NCBI GenBank assembly: GCA_028284745.1
Contig: JANQRC010000015.1
Span: 16,113-40,112 of the forward strand
Direction: 5' to 3'
Origin: Flavobacteriaceae bacterium
GTDB lineage: Bacteria > Bacteroidota > Bacteroidia > Flavobacteriales > Flavobacteriaceae
DNA: 24,000 nt
The position numbers and the translations under genes were made by a program. Below the pieces are notes generated by a model that was not told the DNA's origin, did no database searches, and worked only from the letters and a program-made list of their open reading frames with translations. Positions within the stretch are counted from its first letter, which is position 1. Every line of letters starts with the position of its first letter. Shown piece by piece: positions 7,132 to 20,109 of this stretch.

Positions 7132-7139
7132 CAAAGTTA
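7132..7139 (-). promoter_or_regulatory. -7 box (TAACTTTG on the minus strand) for the cupin gene
   Basis: The plus strand reads CAAAGTTA, which is TAnnTTTG on the coding strand, 22 nt upstream of the TTG start at 7110. Confidence 0.35.
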
Positions 7140-7176: not shown

Positions 7177-8271
7177 CTATTTTACCATTTTAGCCTTTTG
7201 TTTGGCCAATTCGTTACGTTCGATAGTGTGATCGGGTCTTGACCAGCGTGGTTTTTCGCCTAGCTCTTGGTATCGAGAATCGGCAGCTTCGACTGTCTTA
7301 GGTTGGTCTTTCTTGGTGAAGGGCTTCATAGGATTCAGGCCTAGCATCTTGAACATTTCCATATCCTCATTCACGTCAGGATTGGGCGTGGTCAATAACT
7401 TGTCTCCTGCAAAGATCGAGTTGGCACCTGCGAAGAAACACATAGCTTGCCCCTCGCGGCTCATCTGAGTTCTACCAGCAGAAAGGCGCACTTGAGTTTG
7501 CGGCATGACAATACGCGTTGTAGCCACCATGCGAATCATGTCCCAGATCTCCACAGGCTGCTCATCTTCCATCGGAGTGCCTTCTACGGCAACCAATGCG
7601 TTGATCGGCACAGATTCGGGTTGCGGGTCCAAGGTTGAAAGTGCCACCAACATTCCGGCGCGGTCTTCAGCGGCTTCTCCCATGCCTATGATGCCGCCAC
7701 TACATACGGTTACATTGGTCTTTCGCACATTATCAATGGTTTGTAAGCGATCTTCGAACCCACGTGTTGAAATGACTTCTTTATAATATTCTTCGGAAGT
7801 GTCTAAGTTGTGATTGTAGGCGTACAAACCCGCCTCAGCAAGACGCTTGGCTTGATTTTCGGTAACCATGCCCAATGTACAGCACACCTCCATGTCTAAT
7901 TTGTTGATGGCGCGCACCATCTCCAGCACTTGGTCAAACTCAGGGCCATCTTTCACATTTCGCCAGGCAGCACCCATACAAACCCGACTACTTCCTGAGG
8001 CTTTCGCACGAAGCGCCTGTGCCTTCACTTGCTGGACAGACATGAGGTCGTTGCCTTCGATATCGGTATGATAGCGTGCCGCTTGAGGGCAATACCCACA
8101 ATCTTCAGGACAGCCTCCTGTCTTGATCGAAAGCAATGTGGAGACTTGTACTGTGTTGGGATCGTGGTACCACCGATGGATAGTAGCTGCTTCGTAGAGC
8201 AGTTCCATCATAGGCTTATTGTATATCTCAAGGATCTCTTCTTTGGTCCAGTTGTGTCGGATGTTGGTCAT
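7177..8271 (-). CDS. bioB: Biotin synthase
   Basis: It has the radical-SAM motif CPEDCGYCPQ and BioB-specific 2Fe-2S ligand regions (CCTLG, VCSGGIIGMGE, RLSAGR). Confidence 0.95.
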   Translation of the reverse strand: MTNIRHNWTKEEILEIYNKPMMELLYEAATIHRWYHDPNTVQVSTLLSIKTGGCPEDCGYCPQAARYHTDIEGNDLMSVQQVKAQALRAKASGSSRVCMGAAWRNVKDGPEFDQVLEMVRAINKLDMEVCCTLGMVTENQAKRLAEAGLYAYNHNLDTSEEYYKEVISTRGFEDRLQTIDNVRKTNVTVCSGGIIGMGEAAEDRAGMLVALSTLDPQPESVPINALVAVEGTPMEDEQPVEIWDMIRMVATTRIVMPQTQVRLSAGRTQMSREGQAMCFFAGANSIFAGDKLLTTPNPDVNEDMEMFKMLGLNPMKPFTKKDQPKTVEAADSRYQELGEKPRWSRPDHTIERNELAKQKAKMVK

Positions 8272-8291
8272 TCGGGTATCGTTTGTTTATC

Positions 8292-8313
8292 AAAAATAGG
8301 AAATCCTATTTTT
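8292..8313. promoter_or_regulatory. 22-nt AT-rich palindrome AAAAATAGG-AAAT-CCTATTTTT overlapping the bioB -7 box (plus-strand CAAAAATA at 8291-8298)
   Basis: The inverted repeat is a perfect 9+9 bp and lies 20-40 nt upstream of the bioB ATG. It could be an operator, or a hairpin between the KAS gene and bioB. Confidence 0.4.
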
Positions 8314-8357
8314 AGGATCCCGATAGAAGTATTCTTTTGTGAACGATTTTGTAAACA

Positions 8358-9548
8358 CTATGGTAGCCTAAGCAGCACACTCACCGCATTTCCGCCAAAG
8401 CCTACTGCATTCACCAAGATGCGCTGTATCTTTTTTGGAAGATCTTTATGTTGAATGTAAGGAACTTCGATGAATTCTTGATGCTGTAGCATTAGTATTG
8501 CCATTTCTACGCTCAACATCCCTGAAGCACCGAAGGTATGCCCTACTTTCCATTTGTTAGTGGTCAAAGCCGGCATTACGCCATCAAAGATTCTTTTGAT
8601 GGCATTGTATTCACTCTGATCACCTTTGATAGTGCCTGGAGCATGCATCACGATCACATCTACTTTTTCAGGTGAGATACCGCCTAATGCCATCTTCATT
8701 GAACGTTGGAAGCATTCTGCATCTGTAGAGATCGACGCAGGATGCTGAAGCGGTTCGGTAGCATAGCCAATGCCTTCAACGATCGCTAGTGCGTTTTCGT
8801 TCTCACCTCTACCTAAACATGCTACCGAAGCTCCTTCGCCCAATATCATGGTGTTACCCTGTTTTTCTAGATTCAGTGCTTGGCAAGGATACAAAACATC
8901 CTTCGACTGCGCTCGGGATGACAAAGAAGCATAGATCTTCATCGCGCGCATCTGCGCGATGGTGAAAGGCGTCAACGGCGCCTCGCTGCCACCAACTAAG
9001 AACATGTCTGCCATTCCCGATTGCAACCATGCAATGGCATTCAGCAGCGCATGCAAGGCCGTAGAGCATGTGATCGAGTGTGAAATGGTCGGTCCTTGCG
9101 TTTGCAGATCGTGCGCTACCCACGAGGAGATATTGCCCAACGTGGTTGTAGGAGATGTCAAGGTCTGCACTTTTCTCCGTTGCAAAAATTCCGTGTGATG
9201 GCTCTCGAACAAGGTCGTAGCACCACGAGAGGACCCGATGTTTACACCTAAAACACCTTTTTGCTGCCAATTTGTATTCTTTAAGGCAGCTCGACTAGCA
9301 TGAATGGCCAATAATACCGTGTCGTCTAAAGCTTGATACTTCCGGTCACGCTGTCGGAGTGCTTCAACCTCTTGTCTGGCCTCTTGAGAAAGTGGCGCTA
9401 CGAATGTAGGGCTCCCGTCCAGTTCCTTTTCAATGAAACAATGACTTGGACTCAAATAGTGTTGCCAGATCTCTTCGGAAGAAATCCCTATGGCTGAAAT
9501 AGAACCGATGGATGTAATGGAAATTGGTTGCCTCAAAAGAAGTGTCAT
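8358..9548 (-). CDS. Beta-ketoacyl-ACP synthase I/II-like (FabF/FabB-like) protein encoded in the biotin cluster
   Basis: It has a thiolase-fold KAS with an apparent Cys-His-His triad: ITCSTALHAL, VIVMHAPGT and KVGHTFGASG. The C-terminal GFGGNAVSVLL is also KAS-like. The start is set at ATG 9548; the ORF-track start at 9557 is a TTG. Confidence 0.75.
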   Translation of the reverse strand: MTLLLRQPISITSIGSISAIGISSEEIWQHYLSPSHCFIEKELDGSPTFVAPLSQEARQEVEALRQRDRKYQALDDTVLLAIHASRAALKNTNWQQKGVLGVNIGSSRGATTLFESHHTEFLQRRKVQTLTSPTTTLGNISSWVAHDLQTQGPTISHSITCSTALHALLNAIAWLQSGMADMFLVGGSEAPLTPFTIAQMRAMKIYASLSSRAQSKDVLYPCQALNLEKQGNTMILGEGASVACLGRGENENALAIVEGIGYATEPLQHPASISTDAECFQRSMKMALGGISPEKVDVIVMHAPGTIKGDQSEYNAIKRIFDGVMPALTTNKWKVGHTFGASGMLSVEMAILMLQHQEFIEVPYIQHKDLPKKIQRILVNAVGFGGNAVSVLLRLP

Positions 9549-9579
9549 TTCATGCAAAAATAATTCTTATTTTCATGCC

Positions 9580-10032
9580 ATGATCGAACAAGACCCAGAT
9601 TACAAGGAAGCATTTGACAACGAACTGATCGAGCGCCCTAGTTGGTGGAAACGCAACTGGAAGTGGGTAGTGCCTGTTGGTGGTTGCTTAACGTTGACCA
9701 TCTTGTTCTTTATGATGGTTGGCGGGCTTATTTTTGGGATCACTTCTGCCATGGAAGAATCGCAACCTTACGAATATGCCCTTGAGAAGATCAACCAAGA
9801 CAAGAAGATGATCGAATTGTTAGGTTCGCCGATAGAGAAGGATGGTATGGTACAAGGGAACTTCAACTGGACCAATGGAAAGAAAGGGGCTGATATGCGC
9901 ATTCCAATTGCCGGTCCAAAAGGTGCCGCCATATTATATGTGAAAGCCCGAGGTGAAGGAGATGAATGGGTCTATGATGAGATCCGTGTAGAGATGAATG
10001 AGGGTCAAAGCTCGGATCTCTTGATTGAATAA
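9580..10032 (+). CDS. Small single-pass membrane protein, Coa1-like (cytochrome oxidase assembly factor 1 family)
   Basis: The sequence MIEQDPDYKEAF...RPSWWKRNWKWVVPVGGCLTLTILFFMMVGGLIF has one TM helix followed by a soluble domain. I recall this architecture being annotated as Coa1 family in flavobacteria. The start is moved to the ATG at 9580, because the upstream part of the track ORF is antisense to the KAS gene. Confidence 0.5.
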   Translation: MIEQDPDYKEAFDNELIERPSWWKRNWKWVVPVGGCLTLTILFFMMVGGLIFGITSAMEESQPYEYALEKINQDKKMIELLGSPIEKDGMVQGNFNWTNGKKGADMRIPIAGPKGAAILYVKARGEGDEWVYDEIRVEMNEGQSSDLLIE

Positions 10033-10035
10033 AAG

Positions 10036-10070
10036 CGCCTACCTCTATCCTATCCTCGAGGAGAGGGGAC
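10036..10070. repeat. G-rich/C-rich hairpin repeat (copy 1), a probable bidirectional terminator between the Coa1-like gene and bioA
   Basis: The minus strand reads CCCCTCTCCTCGAGGATAGGATAGAGG. It has the core palindrome TCCTCGAGGA (10053-10062) with an extended stem at 10049-10066. It shares the CCCTCTCCT...GG.T.AGG pattern with the copy at 12037-12078. Confidence 0.5.
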
Positions 10071-10071
10071 T

Positions 10072-11337
10072 TTAAAGTATTTCTAGCGACGCTTCGATCA
10101 CCTCATACACCTGCTGAAGCTGTTGCCCAGTGATCACATAGGGTGGCAAAATATAGATCGTATTCCCCAGCGGACGCAAGAACACGCCGTTTTCCATGTA
10201 AAAGTTGAACAGCTTATCGCGTAAATTGCCGTAGCGTTGCATCTCTACATTCAAATCTATCGCGTAGATCACACCCAACTGCCGTGTCGATGCGACCTTT
10301 GGATGTTGCCTGATATGCTTGTCAAACCGTTGGTGAGAAGCAGTGACTCTATGAATGTTGTGCTTCATCTCTTCAGACTGCAACAGCTCGATCCCTGCCA
10401 AAGCTGCCGCACAAGCTAGTGGGTTTGCTGAATAGGTATGCCCATGGAAGAATCCCTTTGACAATTCATCTGAATAGAATGCATCGAATATCTTTAGCGA
10501 GCAACTAGTGATCGCCATCGGCAGCAATCCTGCTGTCAACGCCTTAGATAAGCACATGATGTCGGGTTTGTGCTCAAGGTGGTCTGAGGCGAAATATTCC
10601 CCAGTCTTACCGAAGCCCGTCATCACTTCGTCGGCCACAGTGACCACATCGTGTTCGTGGCAAAATGCGATCAATTCGTCAAGACCCTCTGCATCGTGCA
10701 TCTTCATCGCCGCTGCGCCTTGAACCAGTGGCTCGTAAACGAAACCTGCCACATTGCCTTTAGCAATCAAATTGTTGAGCTGAGAAAGTACTCCTTCATT
10801 GTTATTGCCATCCGGCGCCGGGATCCGTTCTACCTGAATGAGGAGATCTTCGAACGGACCATTGTATATCGAAAGCCCAGATACCGACATCGCCCCGAAG
10901 GTATCTCCATGGAAACCTTCCTCAAAAGCAATTAACACGTTTCGTTTTTCACCCTTATTGAAATGATACTGCAAGGCCATCTTCACACCTACTTCTACTG
11001 CTGTGGAGCCATTGTCTGAAAAGAATAATTTCTGCTGATTATCAGGTAGGATCTCCATCAATGCTTCTGACATCCTGATGGCAGGTTCGTGTGTAAAGCC
11101 ACTGAAGACCACTTGGTCCAGTTGTTGCATCTGACTGGCGACTCGATCGGTGATGTATGGATTACAGTGCCCATACATGGCTACATACCACGAAGCGATC
11201 CCGTCGATATATTCATTGCCTTGATCATCGAAAAGCAAAGCGCCTATTGCCTTTGCTACGGGCAACATGTCACCATGTGTCTTATGCTGTGTCAGTGGGT
11301 GCCAGAGGTGTTTTTTATCGCGCTCTCGTAGGTTCAT
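10072..11337 (-). CDS. bioA: Adenosylmethionine-8-amino-7-oxononanoate aminotransferase
   Basis: It is a class III PLP aminotransferase with the BioA N-terminus (RDKKHLWHPLTQH), ADEVMTGFGKTG and CLSKALTAG (the PLP lysine). The start is ambiguous among in-frame ATGs at 11376, 11352, 11343 and 11337. I favour 11337 (MNLRERDKKHLWHP). Confidence 0.9.
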   Translation of the reverse strand: MNLRERDKKHLWHPLTQHKTHGDMLPVAKAIGALLFDDQGNEYIDGIASWYVAMYGHCNPYITDRVASQMQQLDQVVFSGFTHEPAIRMSEALMEILPDNQQKLFFSDNGSTAVEVGVKMALQYHFNKGEKRNVLIAFEEGFHGDTFGAMSVSGLSIYNGPFEDLLIQVERIPAPDGNNNEGVLSQLNNLIAKGNVAGFVYEPLVQGAAAMKMHDAEGLDELIAFCHEHDVVTVADEVMTGFGKTGEYFASDHLEHKPDIMCLSKALTAGLLPMAITSCSLKIFDAFYSDELSKGFFHGHTYSANPLACAAALAGIELLQSEEMKHNIHRVTASHQRFDKHIRQHPKVASTRQLGVIYAIDLNVEMQRYGNLRDKLFNFYMENGVFLRPLGNTIYILPPYVITGQQLQQVYEVIEASLEIL

Positions 11338-11390
11338 GATCATTTTTCTCATGCTGAGTTTATCTCGGCATCTCATTAATAATTTTTAAT

Positions 11391-11441
11391 GTTTCAAACC
11401 CTGGGCCCTCATTCCCTGACGCTATAGAAAAAGTTTGAAAC
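11391..11441. repeat. 9-bp inverted repeat GTTTCAAAC / GTTTGAAAC spanning the bioD stop codon and the bioD-bioA spacer
   Basis: The arms are at 11391-11399 and 11433-11441, with a 33-nt loop. The loop contains GTCAGGGAATGAGGG (minus strand), which is related to the GTCAGGGTGAGGG of the 12037-12078 repeat. Confidence 0.35.
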
Positions 11442-12033
11442 GTCCTGCATACTCCTTGATCACATTTTGATCGAAGTAAGGTTCTTCACCGATTCTTCCT
11501 AAAATTGGTATGCCCGCCATTTTCTCAATTATGCTTTCTGTGGAAGGATGTTCATCTCCGCTGAAAATGATGCCTTTGACATTCAGCTTCCGTTGTTTCA
11601 GCGCTTCGACAGTGAGCAATGTATGATTGATGCTTCCTAGATAATGACGCGAGACCACCACTACTTCATAGTCTGGCTTGATCGTCTCCAATACTGTTTC
11701 TGTATCATTAAGTGGAACGAGCAATCCGCCTGCACCTTCGATGACCAGGTGATTTCGGGTCTTAGGTTCTTTGATCCCCTGCAATTGGATCGCGATTCCG
11801 TCGATCTCAGCAGCCCCATGCGGACTCATCGGCGTATGGAGCGCATAGCTATTGGGATGGATGACTGATTTCGAATTGGAAATCAATCTGCTAACCGTAT
11901 GCGAATCTGAATTATCAAGGGCGCCCGCTTGCACGGGCTTCCAGTAGTCGGCCTGCAAGGCTTCCACTAGAATTGCTGCAGCAACCGTCTTTCCTACGTC
12001 GGTCGAAATGCCTGTGACAAAGAGTTTTTTCAT
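11422..12033 (-). CDS. bioD: Dethiobiotin synthase
   Basis: MKKLFVTGISTDVGKTV carries the P-loop, and the protein has a BioD-length body. The start is set at ATG 12033. The track's 14-codon extension (MVPSPWGEGQGEGT) is a translated intergenic repeat. Confidence 0.9.
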   Translation of the reverse strand: MKKLFVTGISTDVGKTVAAAILVEALQADYWKPVQAGALDNSDSHTVSRLISNSKSVIHPNSYALHTPMSPHGAAEIDGIAIQLQGIKEPKTRNHLVIEGAGGLLVPLNDTETVLETIKPDYEVVVVSRHYLGSINHTLLTVEALKQRKLNVKGIIFSGDEHPSTESIIEKMAGIPILGRIGEEPYFDQNVIKEYAGRFKLFL

Positions 12034-12036
12034 AGT

Positions 12037-12078
12037 ACCCTCACCCTGACCCTCACCCCAAGGAGAGGGAACCAAGTG
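12037..12078. repeat. G-rich/C-rich hairpin repeat (copy 2) in the bioF-bioD spacer
   Basis: On the plus strand, CCCTCACCCTGA is followed by a second CCCTCACCC, giving a 12-nt-period direct repeat, and then GGAGAGGG. A hairpin at 12050-12069 has 7 bp with one mismatch and a 4-nt loop. Confidence 0.5.
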
Positions 12079-12086
12079 CTTTTTTG

Positions 12087-13232
12087 TTATTGGTTTACAA
12101 AAGTAGCAAGCAAATGCAAGACCTCCTCGATTTCTTCTTCCGAATTATAACTGTGCAAGCAAAAACGGAGTCGCTCTTGTCCAGCGGGAACAGTAGGTGA
12201 TAGAATAGGCCTAACATCAAACCCCTTTTGTTGTAATTGTTGGGAAACTTCTTTGACCCTATCATTCCCTGAAATAATGGCACATTGAATGGCCGAGCAA
12301 CTTGCTATGAATTGCTTGTGCAAGTCAAGTTCCTTTACCTTTTGAAGAAAGTGCTCAATGTTTTCTCGAAGCTGCTTGGATGTTTCAGAAGCTGTATAGA
12401 TGCTATGTGCCGTTATGATCGTGGCCACCGAATGTGGAGGCAAGCCCGTGGTGTAGATAAAGCTTCGAGCAAAGTTGACCAGATAGCTTTTCAGCGTATT
12501 TGACCCCAAAATGGCCGCTCCATGACAACCGAATGCTTTCCCGAATGTGATGATTCGTGCAAAGATGTTAGATGTCAGCTGCAACCGAGGAATCATGCCA
12601 TTTCCAAAGACACCAACTGCATGTGCCTCATCAACTACAAGATGGAATCTATTTTCATCGCAATATTTCGATAATACGTCGAGGTCAGGAGAATCGCCAT
12701 CCATTGAGAAGACAGATTCAGTGACCAAATACACTTCCGCGCCTCGACTGCGCTCGGCATGACAAGCTTTTACCTTACTTTTTAGGTCATCTAGATCATT
12801 GTGCCTAAACTTATAGCCTTTGGCCAGACTCATCGTGATGCCATCACGAACGGAAGCGTGGATATACTCATCATAAAGGATCACATCGCCACGTTGTGGG
12901 ACCGATGAGAAGAAACCAACGTTCGCATCATAACCACTATTGAAGATCAACGCTGCCTCTGAATCGTAGTCTTCACAAAGTTTAGCCTCTACCTCATCAT
13001 ACAATAAATGATTTCCTGACAGCAAACGTGAGCCGGTAGCTCCATTCATTTCAACTGCGTTATCGACAAGCAACCGATATGTTCTTTCATAGAGTTGCTC
13101 GTCTTTGGCAAATCCCAGATAGTCATTAGAGGAAAAATCCACTAGATCCTTGGGCACTGGCAGTCTCCGTAACGCATTGTTCTTGTTTCGTTCTTCAATC
13201 CTTTTCCGAAGCTTTTCAGGGAATTGCTGCAT
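12087..13232 (-). CDS. bioF: 8-amino-7-oxononanoate synthase
   Basis: It is a class II PLP aminotransferase with SNDYLG, VTESVFSMDGD, VDEAHAVG, TFGKAFG (the PLP lysine) and PTVPAGQERLRFCLH. Confidence 0.9.
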   Translation of the reverse strand: MQQFPEKLRKRIEERNKNNALRRLPVPKDLVDFSSNDYLGFAKDEQLYERTYRLLVDNAVEMNGATGSRLLSGNHLLYDEVEAKLCEDYDSEAALIFNSGYDANVGFFSSVPQRGDVILYDEYIHASVRDGITMSLAKGYKFRHNDLDDLKSKVKACHAERSRGAEVYLVTESVFSMDGDSPDLDVLSKYCDENRFHLVVDEAHAVGVFGNGMIPRLQLTSNIFARIITFGKAFGCHGAAILGSNTLKSYLVNFARSFIYTTGLPPHSVATIITAHSIYTASETSKQLRENIEHFLQKVKELDLHKQFIASCSAIQCAIISGNDRVKEVSQQLQQKGFDVRPILSPTVPAGQERLRFCLHSYNSEEEIEEVLHLLATFVNQ

Positions 13233-13436: not shown

Positions 13437-13444
13437 TATATTTG
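13437..13444 (+). promoter_or_regulatory. -7 box TATATTTG for the TerB-like gene
   Basis: This is an exact TAnnTTTG match, 23 nt upstream of the ATG at 13467. It is directly abutted by the right arm of a 9-bp inverted repeat (13379-13387 / 13428-13436). Confidence 0.45.
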
Positions 13445-13466: not shown

Positions 13467-13901
13467 ATGTCATCGATCAAAGAATTATACGATAGCGGTT
13501 TTCAAAAAAGGAACAAAGATCATTTTGCCGCTATTGTCAGAGTAGCCATGAGTGATGGGGTCATCAAAGAAGGAGAGCGATCCTTCCTAAGACGTTTGGC
13601 TCATCGCCTTCACATCTCGGACCATGAATACAACACCATCTTAGACAATTATTCGTCTTACCCGATCAATCCGCCAGTTACATACGAGCGCCGTCTAGAG
13701 CGTCTGTACGACCTCACAAGGATGGTGTTTGCAGATGATGAGATCGGCGAAAGGCAGCAACCGTTGCTTGAGCGTCTAAGTGTCGGGTTGGGCTTCACGC
13801 CAAACAATGTGAAATACGTGGTTGCCAAAGCACTAGAATTGGTAAGCTTTGGTGTCGACTTTGAAGAGTTCGACGAAGAGATCAGAAATATGAATAGGTA
13901 G
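13467..13901 (+). CDS. TerB-like (tellurite resistance TerB / DjlA N-terminal domain family) protein
   Basis: The 144-aa helical protein has two repeats of the pattern VAMSDG.I...E..FL..LA..L.IS and MVFADDEI...Q..LL..L...LGF, which is typical of the TerB fold. Confidence 0.5.
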   Translation: MSSIKELYDSGFQKRNKDHFAAIVRVAMSDGVIKEGERSFLRRLAHRLHISDHEYNTILDNYSSYPINPPVTYERRLERLYDLTRMVFADDEIGERQQPLLERLSVGLGFTPNNVKYVVAKALELVSFGVDFEEFDEEIRNMNR

Positions 13902-13918
13902 CAAAACCTTGACAGTCA

Positions 13919-13951
13919 AAAAAGGCCAAGTCTAGAACTTGGCCTTTTTTT
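13919..13951. terminator. Bidirectional rho-independent terminator between the TerB-like gene and the kinase gene
   Basis: The hairpin is GGCCAAGT-CTAGA-ACTTGGCC (13924-13944). It is flanked by an A-run on the left and a T7 run on the right. Confidence 0.8.
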
Positions 13952-15479
13952 ATGACCTAAGATTGCTGTACACCGCATTTAACAAGGTCTCTTCGTCAAA
14001 TGGCTTGATCAGTGTCTCGGTTATTCCGGCACGTTTGTACCTCGTCAGGTCCTTAGATTTATGATAGGCAGTGACCGCAATTATGGGCACATTTCTAGTA
14101 TTGTTGAATCCTAGCCTTCTGATCTGCTGCGTCAGCTCGTCTCCCTGTATTCCGTTCAATTTGATGTCCATAAGGATCACATCATAGATGTTATGCTTCA
14201 GGTCTTCTAACACTCCTTCTGCGCCCTCGAAGATCTCAACGTAAAAATCTCCGGTACTCACCAATATCTTTAGCATGACCATCTGAGTCATCTCAGAATC
14301 TTCGATCAACAATGCTTTGAACTTCTCTTTCCTCCTTGCAACTGCCGGCCTCTCTGCTCGCTCTTGTTGCTTCTTCTTTTCCTTTTGTACTGAAGGAATC
14401 AATGGGAAGTTGAAATTCATATTGAAGCTGAACTTGCTTCCTTTGCCATGAGTGCTTTCCAACTTAATGTCAGACTCCATCAGATGAAGGATCTGTTTTA
14501 CTATGGATAGCCCAAGCCCAACACCTTTAGGGTCTCCGCTGCTCTGCAGTTGCGAAAAGCTCTCGAATATCTTGGACTGGTCCTCTTCCTTGATCCCCCT
14601 TCCTGTATCAGCAACGCTGAAATGTATGTTTGCTCTGTTGCCTCGGCGATAGTTCTGCTCTACGTGCAAGGTGACCTTTCCTTTTTTGGTGTACTTCAGT
14701 GCGTTGTTCAGCAAGTTTACTATTATCTGTTTCAGCCTAACGGGGTCACCTTCTACTTGCTCAGGGAATTTTTTGTCGACCTCCATGACGAATTTCAACC
14801 CTTTCGCCCTTGCCTTGGCCGAGTATGTGCGCTCGATGTCTTTTAAAACGCCCCTAAGGTCAAAAAGCCTAGGTTCTATCGTAAGTTTTCCTGCCTCGAT
14901 CTTAGAGATGTCCATGATATCTTCTAACATGTTCTTAAGGTCTACGGTAGAAGATTGTATGACGCCCGCATAGTCCAACTGGTCATTGGTCAGCTCGGTA
15001 TGTTGAAGCATTTGCGAGAACGTGAGTATGCTGGTCAACGGATTGCGGATCTCATGGCTGAAGTTTGCTATGAATCTGTTCTTGAACGCTTCCTTTTCTT
15101 TCAAGAATTTATTCTGAAGGTCCAGAAACTGCTTGGCGATCACAGATTCGTTTCGCGTCTGGGTCACTTTTTGCAGTTCGGCATAGTGTTCGGTGAAATT
15201 GGTGATGATGATCAGCAGACCATCAGCCATGCTCTTTATCTCGATATCGCAGATAAACTCGTCTTGCTTGCCTAGATGAACGCAGTTAAGTTGCAACTCT
15301 TCCTTTTCAAGGAAAATTGGGGACAAGCTCTCAAAAAAAGCGTGCTCTTTTTGAATGAAGCTACCATTGCGCAGTTTAAATAGGGCATCATCAGATTCAA
15401 TGATCTTCCCGTTCGTGTCTACTAGCACAAATTGTCTACGAACTTTGTAAAAGTCCGCCTTTATGTCGTCTAATGTCAT
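13950..15479 (-). CDS. Cytoplasmic hybrid sensor histidine kinase/response regulator (small N-terminal PAS-like domain, coiled coil, HisKA, HATPase_c, REC)
   Basis: It has the H-box FSHEIRNPL, N-box LLNNALKYT, G1 DTGRGI and G2 GVGLGLSI. The C-terminal receiver has the acidic pair (IEDSE), the phospho-acceptor (ILMDIKL), T (AVTAY) and K (IKPF). I see no TM segments. Confidence 0.9.
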   Translation of the reverse strand: MTLDDIKADFYKVRRQFVLVDTNGKIIESDDALFKLRNGSFIQKEHAFFESLSPIFLEKEELQLNCVHLGKQDEFICDIEIKSMADGLLIIITNFTEHYAELQKVTQTRNESVIAKQFLDLQNKFLKEKEAFKNRFIANFSHEIRNPLTSILTFSQMLQHTELTNDQLDYAGVIQSSTVDLKNMLEDIMDISKIEAGKLTIEPRLFDLRGVLKDIERTYSAKARAKGLKFVMEVDKKFPEQVEGDPVRLKQIIVNLLNNALKYTKKGKVTLHVEQNYRRGNRANIHFSVADTGRGIKEEDQSKIFESFSQLQSSGDPKGVGLGLSIVKQILHLMESDIKLESTHGKGSKFSFNMNFNFPLIPSVQKEKKKQQERAERPAVARRKEKFKALLIEDSEMTQMVMLKILVSTGDFYVEIFEGAEGVLEDLKHNIYDVILMDIKLNGIQGDELTQQIRRLGFNNTRNVPIIAVTAYHKSKDLTRYKRAGITETLIKPFDEETLLNAVYSNLRS

Positions 15480-15970
15480 TATCCAATAAGTTCTTTGGCC
15501 AGGTCTGTAAAGAGGTCCTTTACGTGGGCTCCTGTCTTGGCACTGGTAAAATAGTTGGGGCGAACTATGAATTCTTCCTTGTTTTCCTTTAAATACGTTT
15601 TGGTCACCAGATCGGCCTTATTGCCAACAATTTTGAACGGGATGTCGTTAAATTTCTCTTGTAGGTATGCTATGGATTTGTCAATTTCTTTGTAGGTATC
15701 TGGTCTGGTGATGTCAAAAACATAGATAAACCCATGGGTTCCTAGCAGGTACGACTCTCGGGTTTTCTTTATATCATCATATCCCTCAAGGTCCCAGATA
15801 ATGAGGTTGACGTCTTTGCCATTCTCTAGCTCGACCTCTCTCTTAAGAATATGCACCCCGATAGTCACCTTGTAGCTATCGGAGAAGGTGTCTTCGACAA
15901 ATCGACGGATCAACGATGTCTTTCCTACGCCAAAGTGTCCTAGCAATACTATTTTCTTAGAGACTCTCAT
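15479..15970 (-). CDS. Ras-superfamily small GTPase, Rab-like
   Basis: G1 is GHFGVGKTS, switch I is YKVTIGV, G3 is WDLEGYD, G4 is GNKADL and G5 is TSAKTG. The protein is 163 aa with no C-terminal cysteine. Its stop overlaps the kinase start (TAATG), and its start overlaps the upstream gene by 14 nt. Confidence 0.85.
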   Translation of the reverse strand: MRVSKKIVLLGHFGVGKTSLIRRFVEDTFSDSYKVTIGVHILKREVELENGKDVNLIIWDLEGYDDIKKTRESYLLGTHGFIYVFDITRPDTYKEIDKSIAYLQEKFNDIPFKIVGNKADLVTKTYLKENKEEFIVRPNYFTSAKTGAHVKDLFTDLAKELIG

Positions 15971-16787
15971 TGTTGAAATAATAGGTTAATTCTCTTGCTA
16001 TTTTTTCTTGGTCAATATCGTTAGAATATTCCATCAATTGGATAAAGTTCTCGTAGAACTCAAAGATAACGTCCTGTAACTTGTCTTTAAAGTGCGTATT
16101 GTAATTCCCAGAAATAACGACCGCAATATAGTGATTAACAAAGTTCTGTATGTGAATGTCAAAAAGCTCGTACTCTATAAGCTCAAGATTTTGTTGTTTC
16201 TGGATGAAGGCATCTTCAACAAAGTTCTTGATGGCGGTCAGCATTCCAGAGACCATGTCCTCATCGATCGTTTCAGAGCGACTGAAGCTGCCGACCAGAA
16301 TACCGGAGTCCTTTTCTATGATCATTACCTGAAGTACTTCTGGCTCTTCGGCAAGTTCACTAATGATCAGGTCTTCTTCGCTCACACCTGTAAACCAGGC
16401 CTTGAATCTTCGTTTCCAACCCCTTGCCGTAAAGCTATCTTCTACTTCTTTACCGATGCGTTCAGACAACAACTTGATTTCCTGTGCCACATATTTTTTG
16501 ATCATCTTGCCTATGATAGGGTACAACGCTTCGACCACTTGGTCTCTAGAGTTCTTGATCTCTTCCTTAAGTGTCTTGGTAATGGTGGGCCCTAAGGTCT
16601 TGGGCATCTCCTTGATGAACTGCTGTAGCTGCTGCTCTACAATGGGGTCCACCTTTTTAGAAAGCTTTGAACGTTCGTTAAGCGTCTCCTCAAGTATGGC
16701 AATACGTTCTTTGACTGCCTCTGCATACTGACGGTCGTCGGTAAGCAAGATGTCCTTGAGGATGGTCAGCTTATCCCTTTCGTTCAT
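15957..16787 (-). CDS. Hypothetical 276-aa protein with an N-terminal helical/coiled-coil half and a C-terminal alpha/beta domain (possibly roadblock/longin-like)
   Basis: This is a long ORF in an operon context. Residues ~150-260 (VLQVMIIEKDSGILVGSFSR...DMVSGMLTAIKNFVEDAF...LELIEYELFDIHIQNF..HYIAVVISGN...) show a beta-beta-alpha-beta-beta-beta-alpha propensity pattern. I cannot assign a family by eye. Confidence 0.6.
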   Translation of the reverse strand: MNERDKLTILKDILLTDDRQYAEAVKERIAILEETLNERSKLSKKVDPIVEQQLQQFIKEMPKTLGPTITKTLKEEIKNSRDQVVEALYPIIGKMIKKYVAQEIKLLSERIGKEVEDSFTARGWKRRFKAWFTGVSEEDLIISELAEEPEVLQVMIIEKDSGILVGSFSRSETIDEDMVSGMLTAIKNFVEDAFIQKQQNLELIEYELFDIHIQNFVNHYIAVVISGNYNTHFKDKLQDVIFEFYENFIQLMEYSNDIDQEKIARELTYYFNNESL

Positions 16788-16806
16788 AAGGGTAGAGGAT
16801 TAAGCG

Positions 16807-17154
16807 CTACTTGCGAATTCTGTTTCCAAGATCTACCAGAAGGTCACCTAGTAGGTCGCGATCCACCTTGGTATGTTGCAACTCATCTGCTTTGTCGTTC
16901 AGTGAGTTTTCCAATTCTGTTATGCGGATATTCAGGTCGGTACTTAGGTTGTCTACATTCTGCATCAATTCTGCTCTTACTTCATCTACAAGCGAAGACA
17001 GTTCTTGTTGCTTCTTGCGGATGTCCTGCTTGATCTTCTCAAACTCAGAATCGTACTCTTGAATGTTTTCGCCAAAGATCAAGTTCTTGATCGCCTCAAT
17101 CTTTGAAGATGGGTCTTCTACTTGGGGCGTGGTTACTTCATTTTTCTTGGCCAT
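16807..17154 (-). CDS. Hypothetical 115-aa coiled-coil protein, first gene of the GTPase/kinase operon
   Basis: The ORF has heptad-like, charged content (EFEKIKQDIRKKQQELSSLVDEVRAELMQNVDNLSTDLNIRITELENSLNDKADELQ). A consensus -7 box lies 23 nt upstream, and there is a 19-nt gap to the next gene. Confidence 0.6.
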   Translation of the reverse strand: MAKKNEVTTPQVEDPSSKIEAIKNLIFGENIQEYDSEFEKIKQDIRKKQQELSSLVDEVRAELMQNVDNLSTDLNIRITELENSLNDKADELQHTKVDRDLLGDLLVDLGNRIRK

Positions 17155-17176
17155 TATTGTGGTTTTCTTAGTTGCA

Positions 17177-17184
17177 CAAATATA
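17177..17184 (-). promoter_or_regulatory. -7 box TATATTTG (minus strand) for the GTPase/kinase operon
   Basis: The plus strand reads CAAATATA, an exact TAnnTTTG on the coding strand, 23 nt upstream of the ATG at 17154. It is flanked by the near-palindrome GGGAAATTACCC (17185-17196). Confidence 0.45.
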
Positions 17185-20101: not shown

Positions 20102-20109
20102 TACATTTG
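20102..20109 (+). promoter_or_regulatory. -7 box TACATTTG upstream of the OlsF-like gene
   Basis: This is an exact TAnnTTTG match, 23 nt upstream of the ATG at 20132. Confidence 0.4.

Follow-up and report, generated by a model that had tools for sequence, protein, structure and literature searches.

What does a small GTPase resembling the eukaryotic Rab proteins do in a bacterial operon that ends in a hybrid histidine kinase? The question is raised by four genes in a 24,000-nucleotide stretch of DNA (the window) from a Flavobacteriaceae bacterium (GenBank assembly GCA_028284745.1, contig JANQRC010000015.1, positions 16,113 to 40,112 of the forward strand; all coordinates below are those of the window). 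An earlier, sequence-only reading described these genes as a new, self-contained operon and compared it with the gliding-polarity module of Myxococcus. According to the analysis presented here, the operon is, judged by its gene content and motifs, a flavobacterial member of the Group 1 Rup module, which consists of DUFY, DUFX, a Rup GTPase and an output protein. With a probability of roughly 0.6, the module in the window acts as a cytoplasmic G-protein input to a phosphorelay. The list of open reading frames (ORFs) of the window contains four tightly packed minus-strand ORFs of 115, 276, 163 and 509 amino acids (aa), at the positions first reported:

16807-17154, minus strand: DUFY, 115 aa, coiled-coil protein with the N-terminal motif IExIKxLIFGExIQxYD (ORF; only coiled-coil noise in Pfam)
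15957-16787, minus strand: DUFX, 276 aa (ORF)
15479-15970, minus strand: Group 1 Rup small GTPase, 163 aa, with G1 GHFGVGKTS, G3 WDLEGY, G4 NKAD and G5 SAK (Pfam Ras, motif counts)
13950-15479, minus strand: hybrid histidine kinase, 509 aa (ORF; Pfam)

The 'Rup' family of prokaryotic Ras-superfamily GTPases was defined computationally (Wuichet and Søgaard-Andersen 2014, Genome Biol Evol 7:57, PMC4316618). Its Group 1 members lack the G3 glutamine and are accompanied by three conserved genes, arranged as DUFY>DUFX>Rup together with an output. The first of these neighbours is a protein with a coiled coil (DUFY), and the second carries a conserved domain whose function is unknown (DUFX), after which a membrane helix and an OmpA domain often follow. 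The third is the output, a GGDEF/EAL protein or a histidine kinase, with an invariant glutamine in its N-terminal region that was suggested to supply the catalytic residue in trans (PMC4316618). All of the defining features examined are found in the window. The 163-aa protein is a small (<240 aa), single-domain Ras-superfamily GTPase with a DxxG-type G3 motif, from which the catalytic glutamine is absent (WDLEGY). It adjoins a coiled-coil protein, the 115-aa ORF, and a DUFX protein, in whose homologues fusion to a membrane helix and an OmpA domain is frequent. The fourth gene encodes a signalling output with an invariant glutamine, Q107, in its N-terminal region, which is probably the glutamine described in 2014. 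None of the four proteins matches Robl_LC7 in Pfam, so that no MglB is detectable by sequence.

Table S2 of the same study lists the DUFY>DUFX>Rup arrangement in Cellulophaga algicola, Croceibacter, Lacinutrix, Krokinobacter, Flavobacterium branchiophilum and a Flavobacteriales isolate, and also in Chloroflexi, cyanobacteria, Nitrospira, Mesorhizobium, Sorangium, Sulfurovum, Alteromonas, Glaciecola, Marinomonas and Pseudoalteromonas (PMC4316618). Because the published description, its flavobacterial entries and the features of the window agree, the operon is assigned to Group 1 Rup, with the same four components in the same order and no essential difference. Like the other flavobacterial entries, the window DUFX is without the transmembrane helix and the OmpA domain. 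Consequently, the novelty claimed for the operon has to be given up, since the neighbourhood had been published with flavobacterial examples in 2014 (PMC4316618). That study assigned no fold to DUFX or to the N-terminal region of the outputs, and the only output types it named were GGDEF/EAL proteins and kinases. The additions made here are a probable longin-like fold for DUFX, a PAS-like N-terminus for the kinase, further output classes and a duplicated unit of GTPase and N-terminal domain.

The four genes form a real and tightly conserved operon. Relatives of the 276-aa protein were sought in one genome per species, which yielded at least 488; the best 80 loci, all in or near Flavobacteriaceae, were analysed. 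A locus was counted as informative when its contig reaches far enough to show all four genes, and in 77/77 such Flavobacteriaceae loci the four genes are present with order and strand unchanged. This co-conservation as a unit is a point in favour of the sequence-only reading. The closest locus among the matches listed belongs to a Spongiivirga metagenome-assembled genome (MAG), with 84% identity. The upstream neighbour fbp is missing in 35 of the 77 loci with all four genes, so the flanks differ. The DUFY gene is present in all 80 genome loci, and among 64 metagenome loci in which a DUFX ORF was matched, its family profile detects it in 60. Metagenome loci from distant lineages, collected with a long OmpA-type DUFX as the query, show two recurring orders, DUFY-DUFX-Rup-X and Rup-DUFY-DUFX-X, where X is the output.

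Direct reading of the sequence confirms the gene sizes and the junctions described earlier: a 19-nucleotide (nt) gap between DUFY and DUFX, a 14-nt ATG...TAA overlap between DUFX and Rup spanning ATGAGAGTCTCTAA, and a 1-nt TAATG overlap between Rup and the kinase. The 14-nt overlap is retained in most loci, and the Rup/kinase junction usually lies within a few nucleotides; together, the retained overlap and the near-zero junction point to translational coupling. A contig labelled 'uncultured Gammaproteobacteria bacterium' (L040, CALNXX010000017.1) carries the flavobacterial order fbp-DUFY-DUFX-Rup-kinase-TerB and is probably a mis-binned or mislabelled MAG.

The GTPase itself belongs to the Pfam Ras family (E 9e-34). 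Its closest solved relatives in a PDB comparison are Rab1, Rab21, Rab35, Rab6, Ypt1, Sec4, Rab23 and Rab7, and 'Rab-like', the term already used in the sequence-only reading, is therefore a fair description. Across 76 orthologues the G1 motif GHFGVGK[TS]S, NKxD and SAK are intact, and W-D-x-E-G of G3 is invariant. The residue after the G3 glycine is Thr in 33 of them, Asn in 24, Tyr in 14, as in the window, and Gln in one. Position F13, which corresponds to G12 of Ras, is an invariant Phe. In the window protein the G2 region reads YKVTIG, with no Arg beside the Thr. By these motifs, the protein is a Rup-type and not an MglA-type GTPase.

Neither of the two accessory proteins has a Pfam family above threshold. 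DUFX can be divided into two parts, the second of which is predicted to be an alpha/beta domain:

16383-16787, minus strand: DUFX N-terminal helical region, aa 1-135, highly conserved, with ALYPIxGKxIKKY (conservation; helix prediction of low confidence)
15978-16352, minus strand: predicted DUFX C-terminal longin/roadblock-like domain, aa ~146-270, best-conserved element SGMLTAIKxFxEDAF (AF2, Foldseek, Pfam scan of the family)

An AlphaFold2 (AF2) model of DUFX built on 38 orthologues has a helical N-terminal half and a C-terminal domain with the topology b-b-a-b-b-b-a-a, the first helix of which is formed by the best-conserved element. In a Foldseek search of this model against the PDB, the top 50 matches are overwhelmingly longin and roadblock proteins. 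They include the sigma and mu N-terminal domains of adaptor protein (AP) complexes, zeta-COP, Mon1-Ccz1 bound to Ypt7, Ykt6, Fuzzy-Inturned bound to Rab23, the C-terminal domains of Rag proteins, LAMTOR proteins and dynein LC7, as well as MglB and MglC (E about 2e-3 to 5e-3). Independently, when 69 diverse C-terminal domains of the DUFX family were compared with Pfam, the only families to recur, all below threshold, were Fuz_longin_1 (9 matches, best E 3e-4), Intu_longin_1 (7), Robl_LC7 (4) and Clat_adaptor_s (2); every other family appeared as a single match. A profile of the DUFX family searched against PDB sequences gave no match, or coiled-coil noise only. Since the fold search and the independent weak Pfam matches converge, the C-terminal domain probably belongs to the longin/roadblock class and shares its fold with eukaryotic Rab regulators, which favours the roadblock/longin-like guess made earlier for this protein. 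Domains of this class regulate small GTPases, as in MglB, Ragulator, GATOR1, TRAPP, DENN and the tri-longin Rab guanine nucleotide exchange factors (GEFs). A literature search for bacterial longin partners returned nothing relevant.

The DUFX family is large, with 3746 clusters at 50% identity. In its long members, one transmembrane helix directly follows the conserved region and precedes BON and OmpA domains. The orthologues of about 276 aa are named 'cell envelope biogenesis protein OmpA' in databases and have neither an OmpA nor any other Pfam domain (P0002-P0099); the name has probably been carried over from the long, OmpA-fused relatives. In four giant relatives (P0210, 1159 aa; P0222, 1079 aa; P0239; P0259), the family profile matches 4-10 separate stretches before the transmembrane helix, BON and OmpA, which suggests internal repeats of the helical region. 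By eye, the N-terminus of DUFY (IEAIKNLIFGENIQEYD) resembles that of DUFX (LTILKDILLTDDRQYAE); a kinship of the two proteins on this ground was rejected, as hhalign found no significant relationship.

In the kinase, Pfam assigns HisKA to residues 133-197, HATPase_c to 244-354 and Response_reg to 390-503, and leaves residues 1-125 without an assignment. The protein is divided as follows:

15192-15452, minus strand: predicted PAS-like domain at the N-terminus, aa ~10-96; conserved residues H46-P-F-F-E, C66 and D78 (AF2, Foldseek, conservation, hhalign)
15090-15191, minus strand: linker helix, aa 97-130, after NFT (DxT-like, aa 94-96), with HY..Q103...Q107-x-R-N110-E111 (conservation, AF2, profile comparison)
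14889-15083, minus strand: HisKA, the dimerisation and histidine phosphotransfer (DHp) domain, with phospho-acceptor H142 (Pfam)
14418-14750, minus strand: HATPase_c catalytic domain, with N259 (Pfam, E 3e-27)
13971-14312, minus strand: receiver (REC) domain, with D394, D438, T470 and K492 (Pfam, E 8e-20)

H142 is invariant in 73 orthologues, and so is N259. The receiver aspartate D438 is kept in 63 of the 73 and replaced by Lys in nine and Ala in one; the substituted lineages may have a pseudo-receiver. An AF2 model of the N-terminal domain, which rests on about 77 paralogous sequences and has a predicted local distance difference test score (pLDDT) of 74, begins with two strands; short helices and three more strands come next, and a long helix (residues 96-127) then runs into the DHp domain. 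Foldseek places this model among PAS and LOV modules (YtvA-LOV, the engineered kinase YF1, FlrB-PAS and VC2136). The domain ends in a DxT-type motif (NFT in the window, DxT in most orthologues), after which HY..Q...Q-x-R-N-E follows; Q107 is invariant in 45 sequences and Q16 nearly so. The Pfam PAS models do not detect the window domain, and one distant orthologue matches PAS_4. As a single query against a large protein database the kinase N-terminus found nothing, and a profile of 45 sequences returned only the paralogues of roughly 200 aa, with 87 relatives of the 200-aa protein described below, nearly all of about that length. By model and fold search, the N-terminus is a PAS-like domain, which a conserved linker helix joins to the DHp domain.

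The outputs of other lineages indicate what this domain may be for. The outputs that follow the module in the metagenome loci are sigma-54 enhancer-binding proteins, histidine kinases (some with REC, some lacking it), GGDEF proteins and a PAS-GAF class III cyclase. Sigma-54 activators and cyclases are new relative to the 2014 list of outputs, and loci with non-kinase outputs include L083:2887-4260, L119:3029-3982, L162:8616-10607 and L114:7886-9058. Each output type begins with an N-terminal region of about 140 aa that is alignable across outputs and carries the motif D.T...Q..QxRNE. The flavobacterial N-terminal domain aligns with those of the other outputs in hhalign with a probability of 95% and an E-value of 4e-8 over 128 columns; profile-profile comparison is needed for this, as the flavobacterial profile by itself found only one distant output. 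The N-terminal domain is thus constant while the outputs vary, a pattern that speaks for the GTPase side as the input and for the PAS-like domain as the receiver of the signal.

A gene duplication points in the same direction. Loci of the Ulvibacter, Marinirhabdus and Aureisphaera type (L072:5986-9900, L073:6801-9975, L077:6262-8466, L081:4338-8689) carry a six-gene operon, DUFY, DUFX, GTPase-1, a 200-aa protein, GTPase-2 and kinase. The 200-aa protein aligns with kinase residues 6-185, that is, with the PAS-like domain, the linker and the DHp region (hhalign E 1e-32); it has another residue in place of the H-box histidine and lacks the catalytic and receiver domains. Pfam does not detect HisKA in these paralogues, whereas hhalign does align the DHp region. 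These proteins might form heterodimers with the kinase or serve as decoys. Judged from the alignments, GTPase and N-terminal domain have been duplicated together as a unit, which supports the view that they are a functional pair.

The same domain also invites the opposite reading, in which the GTPase is the output: the kinase, sensing a small molecule or cofactor with its PAS-like domain, would control Rup by way of DUFX and DUFY. Ligand binding is usual for PAS domains, and the conserved H46, C66 and H98 could ligate a cofactor. In the actinobacterial conservons, moreover, the G protein is thought to be the output (PMC4316618). This direction of flow is nevertheless improbable, because an N-terminal domain that stays the same across lineages while kinases, sigma-54 activators, GGDEF proteins and cyclases are exchanged behind it bears the signature of a shared input, and non-kinase outputs would be unable to act on Rup by phosphorylation.

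From the domain assignments, the motif conservation and the gene linkage, the following interactions may be inferred for the preferred reading, the G-protein input to a phosphorelay. DUFX, probably assembled with DUFY, would bind Rup through its longin-like domain and set its nucleotide state, most likely as a GEF-like platform by analogy with Mon1-Ccz1, Fuzzy-Inturned or MglB. Rup-GTP would then dock on the kinase, at its PAS-like domain and linker helix, and switch the autophosphorylation of H142. The phosphoryl group would pass from H142 to D438 and on to a histidine phosphotransfer (Hpt) protein or response regulator encoded elsewhere. On the linker helix, Q107 and N110 may supply in trans what the active site of the GTPase lacks, in which case the effector would be the off-timer as well. 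In other phyla, DUFX would combine an inner-membrane anchor with periplasmic BON and OmpA domains and hence be receptor-like, whereas the window version would be wholly cytoplasmic; a transmembrane hydrophobic stretch is found in none of the four operon proteins.

Several points weigh against this scheme. The DUFX model is weak, with a mean pLDDT of 58 and values of ~56-84 in the C-terminal domain, and its Foldseek E-values reach only 3e-4 to 6e-3. All Pfam longin matches of the DUFX family lie below threshold, and the window's own domain has no match. The three residues H46, C66 and H98 could bind a cofactor instead of serving a GTPase. Q103, Q107 and N110 share one face of a probable coiled-coil helix and could be conserved for signal transmission rather than for catalysis in trans. 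The locus encodes neither an Hpt protein nor a response regulator, and literature searches, also for work later than 2014, turned up no experimental study of the Rup system.

A further objection concerns the GTPase, as a Phe at position 13 together with the absent glutamine might mean that Rup hardly hydrolyses GTP at all. Taken to its conclusion, Rup would be a non-hydrolysing nucleotide sensor or static subunit that reports the GTP/GDP pool to the kinase, with DUFX and DUFY as mere scaffolds. The invariance of F13 and the missing G3 glutamine fit this idea, as does the fact that no candidate arginine finger was identified for Rup. Against it stand the invariant Gln/Asn pair on the kinase linker helix and the fact that in known systems longin/roadblock partners act on the nucleotide state. 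In addition, Rap, too, has a Thr after the G3 glycine, the commonest residue there in the Rup family, and is still switched off by a GTPase-activating protein (GAP) that provides an Asn in trans. A static sensor is consequently considered as improbable as the reversed signal flow.

The connection with gliding proposed in the sequence-only reading fares less well. Indeed, gldE (459-1766) and a truncated gldD (1-~462) lie in the window, the partner DUFX is longin/roadblock-like, and the lineages bearing the module include gliders among Bacteroidota, Chloroflexi and filamentous cyanobacteria. On this basis, Rup, the roadblock-like partner and the REC domain might set or reverse the direction of gliding, as MglA, MglB and RomR do in Myxococcus. 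The GTPase, however, is of the Rup and not of the MglA type, and the REC domain forms the receiver part of a hybrid kinase instead of a RomR-like protein. Alteromonas, Marinomonas, Mesorhizobium, Sulfurovum and cyanobacteria have the module as well, and the outputs elsewhere are sigma-54 transcription activators, GGDEF proteins and nucleotide cyclases. The gld genes are 12 kb away, behind ssb, mutY, rng, recX and bio genes, that is, with housekeeping genes in between, and the flanks of the operon differ, with fbp missing from the 35 four-gene loci mentioned above. No literature linking a small GTPase to flavobacterial gliding was found. A gliding-polarity role is accordingly unsupported and the least probable of the alternatives, and the distribution and the outputs elsewhere favour general signal transduction over gliding reversal.

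As regards expression, the operon is framed by two predicted elements:

17177-17184, minus strand: predicted Bacteroidota-type -7 box TATATTTG (TAnnTTTG), 22 nt before the first ATG, putative in function
13918-13951, no strand assigned: bidirectional intrinsic terminator, common to the operon and the convergent TerB-like gene (sequence, fold energy)

The exact box was found where it had first been read, on the minus strand. In the whole window, 29 copies of TAnnTTTG are observed against 17.1 +/- 4.3 expected, and several of them lie about 19-25 nt upstream of start codons (for example 13437-13444(+), 20102-20109(+), 12098-12105(-) and 7132-7139(-)), a near-fixed spacing implying short leaders. 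Because the motif is enriched and several copies stand at a similar distance from start codons, a promoter ahead of DUFY is plausible. The terminator, too, proved to be strong: the hairpin 13924-13944, with A and T runs on either side, has a folding energy of -25.9 kcal/mol (z = -6.2). It was not among the listings of a generic terminator scan of the window. The description of the operon as self-contained is qualified by fbp on the same strand: its end is a mere 54 nt upstream, and no terminator was found in the interval before DUFY, so that transcriptional read-through into the operon is possible.

As for the surroundings, fbp stands upstream of the operon in 43 of the 80 loci, and a TerB-like gene of 144 aa (13467-13901, plus strand), convergent on the operon, occupies the same position in 39 of the 80. 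These conserved flanks may be plain synteny among related genera. Further away, a biotin cluster on the minus strand (7177-13232; bioB, bioA, bioD, bioF) includes a beta-ketoacyl-acyl carrier protein-synthase-like gene at 8358-9557, whose score falls well short of the fabF cut-off.

Among bacterial proteins, the Group 1 Rup GTPases come nearest to the eukaryotic Ras, Rab and Rho GTPases, and the system is widespread, with about 3700 clusters at 50% identity in the DUFX family alone. It is tentatively possible, and on balance doubtful, that the C-terminal domain of DUFX is a true homologue of the first longin domain of the tri-longin Rab GEFs and an exchange factor for Rup. If so, a pair of Rab and longin GEF existed in bacteria, the membrane-anchored form would have the wiring of a receptor-G protein-effector cascade whose effectors include a cyclase, and the core logic of eukaryotic small-GTPase regulation would have a bacterial precedent. 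The proposed folds, namely a longin/roadblock-like partner, and a PAS-like docking domain with a conserved Gln/Asn helix, turn a gene list into specific, testable experiments on binding and catalysis. The flavobacterial version, made up of four soluble proteins, would lend itself most easily to reconstitution. A database error is also corrected, as the short orthologues labelled OmpA do not have an OmpA domain.

Among known systems, an anti-phage defence system was considered and rejected, since PADLOC models gave only weak generic coiled-coil, P-loop and HATPase matches. The actinobacterial conservons (CvnA-D of Streptomyces; Mfp of Mycobacterium) are closer. They, too, are four-gene units that connect a small Ras-like GTPase with a histidine-kinase-type protein, and the link is likewise made by a roadblock-class protein and a protein of unknown function. 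However, CvnD is an MglA-family GTPase whereas the window GTPase is Rup/Rab-like. CvnA is a membrane kinase with HAMP and no receiver, in contrast to the soluble PAS-like hybrid kinase of the window. CvnB is a sequence-detectable Roadblock/LC7 protein and CvnC a DUF742 protein; neither HAMP nor DUF742 has a Pfam match in the four window proteins. Membership in the conservons was rejected, as the kinase has no transmembrane segment or HAMP, DUF742 is absent and the GTPase is of the Rup type.

The polarity module of Myxococcus (MglA, MglB and RomR) likewise combines a small GTPase with a roadblock/longin-class protein. MglA differs in its TVPGQ-type G3 motif (TVPGQ/GTPGQ) and, in Group 1 of its own family (MglA proper), in an intrinsic arginine finger, whereas the window GTPase has WDLEGY and no such Arg. 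MglB is a small stand-alone roadblock dimer, while DUFX has 276 aa, with a long helical half at its N-terminus; RomR is a response regulator in its own right, while the REC domain of the window is part of a hybrid kinase. For the window operon, no link to the motility machinery was seen.

The kinase may be compared with PAS-linked kinases such as FixL and those of the YF1/YtvA type, which share the PAS-like fold, the DxT-type motif and the long helix into the DHp domain. The difference would lie in the ligand, which is proposed to be a protein, the GTPase; to our knowledge, this has no precedent for a PAS-like domain. On the side of DUFX, the first longin domain of the tri-longin Rab GEFs (Mon1-Ccz1, Fuzzy-Inturned and BLOC-3) is among the best resemblances of its C-terminal domain, all of them below family thresholds. 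These GEFs have three tandem longin domains per subunit, whereas the DUFX model has one alpha/beta domain after a helical half, and they serve membrane traffic, whereas the system described here is coupled to bacterial signalling outputs.

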